Part shown: positions 651-4,079 of the stretch, piece after piece | Numbering within the stretch: position 1 is the first letter of the stretch | How the letters are laid out: each line of letters begins with the position of its first letter | Sequence record: OR515477.1 | DNA: 64,000 nt | DNA from: Escherichia phage Es2 | Reading direction: 5' to 3' (one strand) | Made by a program: the position numbers and the translations under genes | Notes under the pieces: model-generated | Told to the model about the DNA's origin: nothing | What the model saw: only the letters and a program-made list of their open reading frames with translations | The model's database searches: none

Positions 651-733
651 GGGTCGTTAGCCAAGCGGTTTGGCGGTGGACTGTTAATCCATGTCGAAAG
701 ACAACGTAGGTTCGAATCCTACACGGCCCGCCA
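651..733 (+). tRNA. tRNA, anticodon GTT (Asn-decoding) with unusually long variable arm
   Basis: Acceptor GGGTCGT/ACGGCCC, D stem GCCA/TGGC, anticodon loop CTGTTAA, 13-nt variable region, T-arm GTAGG-TTCGAAT-CCTAC, CCA. Confidence 0.6.
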
Positions 734-3242: not shown

Positions 3243-3321
3243 GGGGAATGGGTCTGCATGGAGTGGACACCTCGCTTGCACCGAGGACATCAGAACGGTT
3301 CGATTCCGTTATTCTCCACCA
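3243..3321 (+). tRNA. tRNA-Ala (anticodon TGC)
   Basis: Acceptor GGGGAAT/ATTCTCC, anticodon stem CCTCG/CGAGG with loop CTTGCAC, T-arm AACGG-TTCGATT-CCGTT, CCA; 7-nt variable loop. Confidence 0.65.
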
Positions 3322-3326
3322 AATAC

Positions 3327-3403
3327 GCGTGATTGATGGAATGGGCATACATACCGTCCTTAGAAGTCGGGTTTTGAGGGTTCGAATCCCTTGTCACGCA
3401 CCA
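3327..3403 (+). tRNA. tRNA, anticodon TAG (Leu-decoding) with short variable loop
   Basis: Acceptor GCGTGAT/GTCACGC, anticodon loop CTTAGAA with one stem mismatch, T-arm GAGGG-TTCGAAT-CCCTT, CCA; isotype uncertain. Confidence 0.5.
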
Positions 3404-3515
3404 AATTTGATGGTCAGAGTAAATTAAACCTACTATCTCGGTTGAGCTGTTTTAATGGGTTCGAATCCCAGCGGGGCGTAACTGCCTGGTGTGATAGAGG
3501 CATCATCTTATTATT

Positions 3516-3606
3516 GGAAGAGCAAATCGAATTGGCGACGAAAACCGCTTGGAAAGTGGCTGACTGGTAAAACGGCTTGAGAGTTCAAATCTCTCCTCTT
3601 CCGCCA
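3516..3606 (+). tRNA. tRNA-Ser (anticodon GGA), type II
   Basis: Perfect acceptor GGAAGAG/CTCTTCC, anticodon loop TTGGAAA, long variable arm, T-arm GAGAG-TTCAAAT-CTCTC, CCA. Confidence 0.7.
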
Positions 3607-3713: not shown

Positions 3714-4079
3714 AATCTTGAAGTATGCCGGAATCGGTAGACGGGGCTGCCTAAAAGGTTTATAGGGAACATCCACTCCCTGCAACATACCTCATAAAGC
3801 GGCTGAGATAAATGGTCTATCTCGTGAAGGTTCAAGTCCTTCTGCTTCTTGATACATCTATGGCTCAAAGTGTAACGGTGCTATTTGATGCTCTTGGTAA
3901 GACTTCCCCGACATGCGTTCGGGAGTAAGCTGCTAAGACTAGAGTAGAAGAGTTTCTGAGAGCCGCCACAATTGAAAATTCGTACTCGTCTTGAGCTGCG
4001 CGCAATAGGAGATAACTTGATTAGTATTCTAGAACATGCTAATTGAGGAAGGTTTCGCTAACCCTGCGAGTTTTCAATT

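Follow-up and report, generated by a model that had tools for sequence, protein, structure and literature searches.

Textbooks describe tRNA-Leu as a tRNA with a long variable arm. A review states that tRNA-Leu is long-armed everywhere except in animal mitochondria, and it lists as determinants of the E. coli leucyl-tRNA synthetase (LeuRS) A73, U8-A14, the Levitt pair A15-U48, G18G19, A20a and the D-loop/T-loop contacts, with both the long arm and the anticodon being dispensable for this enzyme (PMC9976931). A short-arm tRNA-Leu(CAA) with a 5-nt variable loop has been described in Streptomyces coelicolor, which also has long-arm tRNA-Leu and only one LeuRS; the E. coli LeuRS failed on this Streptomyces tRNA, and in the same work it is said that the E. 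coli enzyme "only charges type II" (PMC6614811). In Mycobacterium mucogenicum and M. phocaicum, a tRNA-Leu(TAG) with a short variable loop is located in an acquired tRNA gene cluster (PMC6582537). In the papers searched, we found no analysis of phage short-arm tRNA-Leu or of their charging, the only passing mention being the one in the work on this mycobacterial tRNA array (PMC6582537). In phage T5, tRNAL1(UAG) (NC_005859, 31624-31708) is 85 nt long and has a 13-nt variable region. According to the annotation of the T5 record, a version of tRNAL1 with a CUA anticodon functions as an amber suppressor; reports of such a function are confined to the T5 tRNA.

The DNA analysed in our study is a stretch of 64,000 nucleotides from Escherichia phage Es2 (OR515477.1), referred to here as the window. 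Its first 8 kb are similar to T5-like phages (Demerecviridae), the best match being Escherichia phage IME178 with 98% identity, and ARAGORN identifies 16 tRNA genes within the first 6 kb. One of them, at 3327-3403 on the + strand, is a 77-nt gene with the anticodon UAG and an encoded ACCA end, which belongs to the T5 tRNA cluster and occupies the slot that immediately follows tRNA-Ala(UGC); the ARAGORN call, tRNA-Leu(tag), has exactly these limits and this strand. Based on the analyses presented here, this gene probably encodes a functional elongator tRNA-Leu(UAG), from which the long variable arm has been lost, in a T5-like phage.

A first-pass annotation of this DNA had described a tRNA with a UAG anticodon, a 5-nt variable loop and a single mismatch in the anticodon stem, and had pointed out that bacterial Leu tRNAs have a long arm. 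A Leu tRNA with a short arm is indeed abnormal in bacterial translation, and the structural elements were all recovered in our study. ARAGORN and Rfam agree on the UAG anticodon in the loop CTTAGAA. The ARAGORN brackets consist of a 7-bp acceptor stem, 2 nt, a 3-bp D stem with an 11-nt loop, 1 nt, a 5-bp anticodon stem with one position unpaired and a 7-nt loop, a 5-nt variable loop (GTTTT, also found with RF00005) and a 5-bp T stem. With Rfam RF00005, positions 3327-3400 score 47.7 bits (gathering score, 29), as a full-length match (1-71) in the register of ARAGORN, and the sole non-standard pair flagged is U30·U40 (3357/3367), which is the mismatch of the anticodon stem. No better fold with another anticodon was obtained from ARAGORN, Rfam or model R1 (a covariance model trained on 41 long-arm tRNA-Leu from phages, the entire anticodon loop being masked), nor was there an alternative register. 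The coordinates of all the elements are given in Table 1.

Table 1. Elements of the short-arm tRNA-Leu(UAG) gene and their positions in the window.
Feature	Coordinates	Strand	Basis
Whole gene, short-arm (type I) tRNA-Leu(UAG), CCA included	3327..3403	+	ARAGORN, RF00005, model R1, GenBank identity
Acceptor stem, 5' strand GCGTGAT, pairing with 3393-3399 GTCACGC; U7·G66 wobble	3327..3333	+	Sequence, ARAGORN brackets
U8, G9, D arm and A26; D stem ATG/CAT of 3 bp, G13·A22 unpaired	3334..3353	+	Canonical-position read-out
D loop A14 A15 U16 G17 G18 G19 C20 A20a U21	within 3334..3353	+	Canonical-position read-out
LeuRS hinge determinants	U8 3334, A14 3340, A15 3341, G18G19 3344-3345, A20a 3347	+	Read-out
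Anticodon arm; stem CCGTC/GTCGG, mismatched at U30·U40	3354..3370	+	Sequence, ARAGORN, RF00005
Anticodon loop CTTAGAA; anticodon TAG	3359-3365; 3361-3363	+	Sequence
Variable loop of 5 nt (GTTTT), ending in U48 (3375), which forms the Levitt pair with A15	3371..3375	+	ARAGORN brackets, read-out
T arm, stem GAGGG/CCCTT, loop TTCGAAT (U54 U55 C56 G57 A58 A59 U60)	3376..3392	+	Sequence, ARAGORN, RF00005
Acceptor 3' strand (3393-3399), discriminator A73 (3400), encoded CCA (3401-3403)	3393..3403	+	Sequence, read-out

Some of these results could raise doubts about the integrity of the molecule. The RF00005 score is only the 12th of 15 in the window, and folding of the single sequence gives a minimum-free-energy structure other than a cloverleaf, with a z-score of only -1.7; weak single-sequence folds of this kind are common for tRNAs. 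We accept the cloverleaf despite this z-score because the comparative data outweigh it. In 32 distinct tRNAs of one architecture, pairing is found in 94.0% of the cells versus 59.7% in shuffles, two-sided changes occur at 19 of the 23 pairs, and the covariation score is 0.945, as against 0.11-0.18 with slid partners. In the alignment of the short-arm family, two-sided changes affect all 7 acceptor pairs, and 4 of the 5 T-stem pairs covary. It is very improbable, in our opinion, that the gene is a tRNA-like remnant of an allele swap, either decaying or without a role in translation (e.g. a pseudogene, processing signal or decoy). Such an origin would fit the low Rfam rank, the z-score, the U·U mismatch, the 3-bp D stem and the "Pseudo" or "OTHER" labels in a few records, and the T5 cluster does contain tRNA-like stable RNAs whose function is not known; however, the gene is conserved at 95-100% in about 160 genomes, distant copies keep the cloverleaf through compensatory changes, and the anticodon, A73, the CCA end and all the LeuRS determinants are retained. 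In addition, the 3-bp D stem with an unpaired 13·22 is also present in the host leuW, and phage IrisVonRoten has no long-arm Leu tRNA alongside its short-arm gene. A scan for promoters and terminators around the gene gave sites no more numerous than in shuffled sequence.

The comparison with T5 indicates how the slot came to be occupied. T5 tRNAL1 is located in the same slot and shares with the window tRNA the UAG anticodon, the layout of the D arm (U8 G9, 3 positions, G13, AAYUGGNAN, A22), A37, A73 and the encoded CCA, but the two are only about 61% identical and their acceptor and T stems are unrelated. Due to these differences, an origin from T5 L1 by deletion of the arm was rejected, and the data are those of a gene replacement at this slot rather than of a simple deletion. 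The 77-nt short-arm gene is found in the L1 slot of the window, DT57C, IrisVonRoten and TrudiRoth, and the short-arm allele (163 phage records at ≥90% identity) is commoner than the long-arm gene of T5 (54 phage records). In T5, I14 and DaisyDussoix, the HNH endonuclease gene hegC lies at the position of the spacer that follows the tRNA-Leu gene in the window. Linkage of hegC to the long-arm allele fits these three phages; a strict linkage was rejected, since rutana has the long-arm gene followed by a plain spacer.

With E. coli leuW, the host tRNA with the same anticodon, the window tRNA shares a collinear D arm, U8, A14, A15, G18G19, A20a, A22, U48 and A73. The differences are in the variable region, which is a 13-nt arm in leuW and 5 nt in the window tRNA, and in the anticodon loop, which is UUUAGGU (U32, G37, U38) in leuW and CUUAGAA (C32, A37, A38) in the window tRNA. 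A blastn search with the window tRNA against 5,426 complete E. coli genomes gave no match at E values up to 10, and consequently the isotype cannot be assigned by similarity to host tRNAs. Regarding the bacterial short-arm examples, the variable loop of the Streptomyces tRNA-Leu(CAA) ends in C48, so that it does not possess the A15-U48 element, and its own LeuRS ignores A73, whereas the window tRNA keeps the E. coli-type determinants. The mycobacterial tRNA-Leu(TAG) belongs, like the window gene, to a mobile tRNA array, which also has an HNH endonuclease gene, with normal long-arm chromosomal copies nearby (PMC6582537); its host is of a different phylum, and it is likened to the window tRNA by description only.

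Other elements of the cluster were also identified. Between the tRNA-Leu gene and the next tRNA gene there is a 112-nt spacer (3404-3515, +), conserved in 248 phage records, where model R1 finds a T-arm-like fragment, GGGTTCGAATCCC, near 3456-3470 and no full tRNA. It is followed by two long-arm tRNA-Ser with anticodons GGA and UGA (3516-3606 and 3619-~3712, +), which correspond to tRNAS2(GGA) and tRNAS1(UGA) of T5; both have several stem mismatches, were missed by ARAGORN and are below the Rfam gathering score, and they appear only as weak tRNA-Sec-clan matches of 19.7 and 37.6 bits. Weak R1 matches on the + strand at 1656-1723 (20.4 bits), 3719-3795 (12.9 bits) and 736-805 (8.8 bits) fall where T5 annotates the tRNA-like stable RNAs RNA2, RNA1 and rna3. 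The upstream neighbour, tRNA-Ala(UGC) (3243-3321, +), is 79 nt long and has G8 G9, G3·U70 and a variable loop of 7 nt; it closely resembles the tRNA-Ala of PVP-SE1 (Vequintavirinae), unlike those of T5 and TrudiRoth, and the Ala and Leu tRNA pair may have moved between phage families as a single module. The tRNA-Asn(GUU) at 651-733 (+) presents the opposite anomaly, an extra arm on a normally short-arm isotype: it is 83 nt long and has a 13-nt variable region, GTCGAAAGACAAC, in which a small hairpin is possible.

The gene of the window is not an isolated case. Genes that are 100% identical to it are annotated as tRNA-Leu in phages Spc35, IrisVonRoten and HMD-7, so that it is already present in GenBank under this name, and it is a member of a conserved group of phage short-arm tRNA-Leu. 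In total, 282 phage records match, 163 of them at ≥90% identity and 108 at 80-90%, the latter in Felix O1-like and PVP-SE1-like phages. Most GenBank labels of the short-arm gene are tRNA-Leu, and a few are "tRNA-OTHER" or "tRNA-Pseudo-TAG". The 74-nt body plan of the window tRNA is found in PVP-SE1 (Vequintavirinae), FSL SP-107 and Sf14 (Ounavirinae) and EscoHU1 and TrudiRoth (Demerecviridae), and these relatives from enterobacterial phages have in common with it a 9-nt D loop AAYUGGNAN followed by A22, a 5-nt variable loop ending in U, and A73. Their core identity to the window tRNA is 81% for the PVP-SE1 copy, 75-79% for the FSL SP-107 and TrudiRoth copies and about 57% for the Sf14 copy. 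The U·U mismatch is common to the window, PVP-SE1 and FSL SP-107 copies and is replaced by a G·U pair in TrudiRoth.

The anticodons of these relatives are informative about their isotype. Three short-arm tRNAs built on this plan occur in the Felix O1-like phage FSL SP-107; their anticodons are UAG, CAA and UAA, and the UAA and CAA copies have variable loops of 6-7 nt. The T5-like phage EscoHU1 has a UAA version, and the cluster of IrisVonRoten includes only two Leu tRNAs, both of them 77-nt short-arm genes, with anticodons UAA and UAG, which read UUA and CUA. Anticodons of both leucine boxes on one and the same body would be expected with a synthetase that ignores the anticodon. A "tRNA-Thr" label on the FSL SP-107 match was rejected as an isotype call: the GenBank tRNA features of this record (KC139640.1) are offset by 381 nt from the ARAGORN genes, which accounts for the label. 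The nearest long-arm relative that we found, an 87-nt tRNA-Leu(UAG) in IMG/VR contig 3300046385_000120 (L008), has 68% core identity and shares with the window tRNA the anticodon arm CCGGTC-CTTAGAA-GTCCGG, in which U30·U40 is likewise mismatched; this likeness suggests a common Leu ancestry of the two sequences but does not identify a direct precursor. Pattern matches with an apparent variable region of 16 nt (...GGAATGTCAAACCTTAGATGTGCGGAGCTTGACAACTCGTCCCGGTTCGAGTCCGGG...) were also obtained, for L012, L013, L024 and about 25 others (IMG/VR sample 3300045988 et al.).

Special attention was given to the isotype, which the first-pass annotation had left as uncertain, recommending identity-element and covariance-model checks. 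The inspection of identity elements shows A73 together with the complete E. coli LeuRS set, in the same register as in the host leuW, with a trans-Levitt A15-U48 and with the T-loop determinants U54, U55, C56 and A58; in addition, the anticodon TAG is one of the leucine anticodons (NAG or YAA). Two features depart from a usual tRNA-Leu of this decoding group. First, the long arm of type II tRNAs is replaced by a 5-nt loop, and model R1 aligns the window tRNA with an 8-position deletion. Second, the tRNA has A37 (3364), whereas G37 is the base expected in E. coli-type CUN-reading isoacceptors, as seen in the host leuW. This G37 is methylated to m1G37.

The distribution of these determinants was examined in 875 distinct phage tRNAs parsed after a pattern scan of IMG/VR contigs. 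It is important to note that the abundance of short-arm Leu tRNAs in this sample is biased because the contigs were picked by tRNA(UAG), and therefore the counts of such tRNAs are not unbiased frequencies. The full identity set is present in 38 of the 60 short-arm representatives with Leu anticodons and in 24 of the 54 long-arm Leu tRNAs, and in 11 of the 692 non-Leu tRNAs. A15 and U48 occur together in 56 of these 60 short-arm representatives versus 231 of the 692 non-Leu tRNAs, and A73 is found in all 60. In the 32 short-arm Leu-anticodon tRNAs with the same architecture (alignment A4), U8, A14, A15, G18, A20a and U48 are invariant, and four of these positions (U8, G18, A20a and U48) played no part in selecting the 32 tRNAs.

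Models trained on other tRNAs lead to the same isotype. Model R1 gives 56.9 bits to 3327-3400, ranking the window tRNA first in its cluster, followed by Lys (44.2 bits) and His (42.6 bits). As controls, the host leuW, which is outside the training set, scores 84.6 bits and likewise ranks first in its cluster, and in four other phage clusters all eight short-arm tRNAs with Leu anticodons score above the other tRNAs of their clusters. We also used a 20-class naive-Bayes classifier on canonical positions, from which the anticodon loop, the length of the variable loop and the short-arm Leu tRNAs were all left out; it classifies the window tRNA as Leu by 9-10.5 bits and makes false Leu calls in 1-2 of the 692 non-Leu tRNAs, with an overall leave-one-out accuracy of 70%. 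Part of the Leu training set of the classifier was gathered with a pattern in which position 31 and the T loop are fixed, and the Leu call does not change once the pattern-fixed positions are dropped. Among about 870 phage tRNAs, 28 of the 29 nearest neighbours of the window tRNA have Leu anticodons. The body of the window tRNA is thus leucine-type.

An independent test is provided by the codons that this tRNA reads. In 58 ORFs of the window, CUA occurs at 18.0 per 1000 codons and makes up 22% of the Leu codons, compared with 2.6 per 1000 and 2.4% in 49 kb of E. coli, which is an excess of about 7-fold in the phage. UUA is likewise doubled with respect to E. coli, and UUA and CUA are exactly the codons read by the two short-arm Leu tRNAs of IrisVonRoten. 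When window ORFs of at least 100 codons were aligned to their T5 orthologues, 217 CUA codons could be compared: T5 has the identical codon at 115 of them, a different Leu codon at 91 (UUR in 44 cases) and a codon for one of seven other amino acids at 11 (5%). The non-synonymous fraction over these alignments as a whole is 9.3%. CUA evolves as a leucine codon in this phage.

These codon data bear on the possibility that the tRNA has another identity (e.g. Thr, Lys, Ile or Val) and, with its UAG anticodon, reassigns or mistranslates CUA. The short-arm architecture, atypical for a bacterial Leu tRNA, would agree with it, and the pairs G1-C72 and C2-G71 resemble the acceptor pairs of tRNA-Thr. There is also a precedent in the yeast mitochondrial tRNA-Thr(UAG). 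In the Sf14 relative, a more distant short-arm tRNA(UAG), the published tRNAscan-SE isotype scores rank Leu first (67.4), in favour of leucine, but Ile2 (65.7) and Lys (63.4) are near it, which is a small margin (PMC12482277). However, CUA exchanges with Leu codons, 91 of the 102 changed CUA positions being other Leu codons in T5 and only 5% of all those aligned being non-Leu, which makes a reassignment or mistranslation of CUA very unlikely. Moreover, the LeuRS identity set is complete, G3·U70 is absent, model R1 and the classifier both choose Leu, and the anticodon does not contain the bases read by ThrRS, LysRS, IleRS and ValRS (identity rules, PMC9976931). We consider that another identity has hardly any chance of being correct. 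Nor is the tRNA a suppressor or recoding tRNA: its UAG anticodon reads CUA and no stop codon, and 206 of the 217 aligned codons are Leu in T5.

The uncertainty of the isotype in the first-pass annotation is hence removed by five independent lines that lead to leucine, namely the identity elements, the long-arm Leu covariance model, the naive-Bayes classifier, the anticodons of the relatives and the evolution of the CUA codons, and the isotype of the window tRNA is settled as leucine by computation. The points that speak against a leucine reading are A37, the U·U mismatch, the "OTHER" and "Pseudo" labels, the small Sf14 margin, the negative charging result of PMC6614811 and the 70% accuracy of the classifier.

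As a working elongator tRNA-Leu(UAG), the gene would be transcribed along with the other genes of the tRNA cluster, and its transcript would need no CCA addition because the CCA is encoded in the gene. The host leucyl-tRNA synthetase would then charge it, reading A73, U8-A14, A15-U48, G18G19, A20a and their T-loop partners, and neither the anticodon nor a long arm. The charged tRNA would decode CUA, and possibly other CUN codons through wobble, thereby supplying a codon that represents 22% of the phage leucine codons and about 2% of those of the host. From the sequence we infer its expression, its charging by LeuRS, its base modifications and its main selective benefit, which may be codon supply or nuclease escape.

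Nuclease escape as the main benefit would mean that the tRNA is charged with leucine but kept mainly as a nuclease-resistant stand-in for the host tRNA-Leu, codon supply being secondary; the loss of the arm and the three changes in the anticodon loop would then allow it to evade tRNA-cleaving defences of the host or of a prophage. T5-like phages are blocked by Septu and retron-Eco7, which cleave the host tRNA-Tyr in its variable loop, and T5's own tRNA-Tyr is resistant owing to its differing variable loop (PMC13096335). The terminase of the Salmonella prophage Gifsy-1 fragments tRNA-Leu at the anticodon region (PMC11610961). The window loop CUUAGAA differs from the host UUUAGGU at positions 32, 37 and 38, the same three as in Sf14 (PMC12482277), and anticodon-loop differences have been proposed by others as a protection from anticodon nucleases. 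In the sampled viral contigs, short forms are common for Leu anticodons (17 of 23 CAA and 12 of 30 UAA tRNAs have ≤79 nt), whereas Ser and Tyr tRNAs remain long, although the choice of contigs for tRNA(UAG) biases the frequency of the short Leu forms. On the other hand, both alleles, long-arm and short-arm, occur among closely related T5-like phages and show no clear division by host, and the sevenfold CUA excess is already a sufficient reason for the gene. To our knowledge, no defence nuclease cuts the variable arm of tRNA-Leu. Taken together, we consider it unlikely that escape is the main reason for keeping the gene; escape from defence through the loss of the arm is at most conceivable. 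A broader proposal seems to us more doubtful still, according to which short-arm tRNA-Leu would be a widespread phage class charged by ordinary enterobacterial LeuRS, the changes in the arm and the loop removing a target of immunity. If true, it would run against the published view that E. coli LeuRS is restricted to long-arm tRNA-Leu, and it would parallel the evasion of Septu and retron-Eco7 by T5 tRNA-Tyr.

Under the preferred reading of a working elongator tRNA-Leu, the gene is an unusual form of an ordinary gene and not a recoding device, and its predicted function is that of an ordinary leucine tRNA; the "pseudo" or "OTHER" label that such genes sometimes bear looks wrong in this case. 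E. coli and Salmonella phages have natural short-arm tRNA-Leu genes that keep the determinants defined by in vitro selection for E. coli LeuRS, and, since these determinants are kept without the arm, such genes are natural material, readily at hand, for testing the rule of a dispensable arm. Another question to which the gene may be relevant is why phages carry tRNAs, with codon supply and escape from tRNA-cleaving defences as the alternatives.
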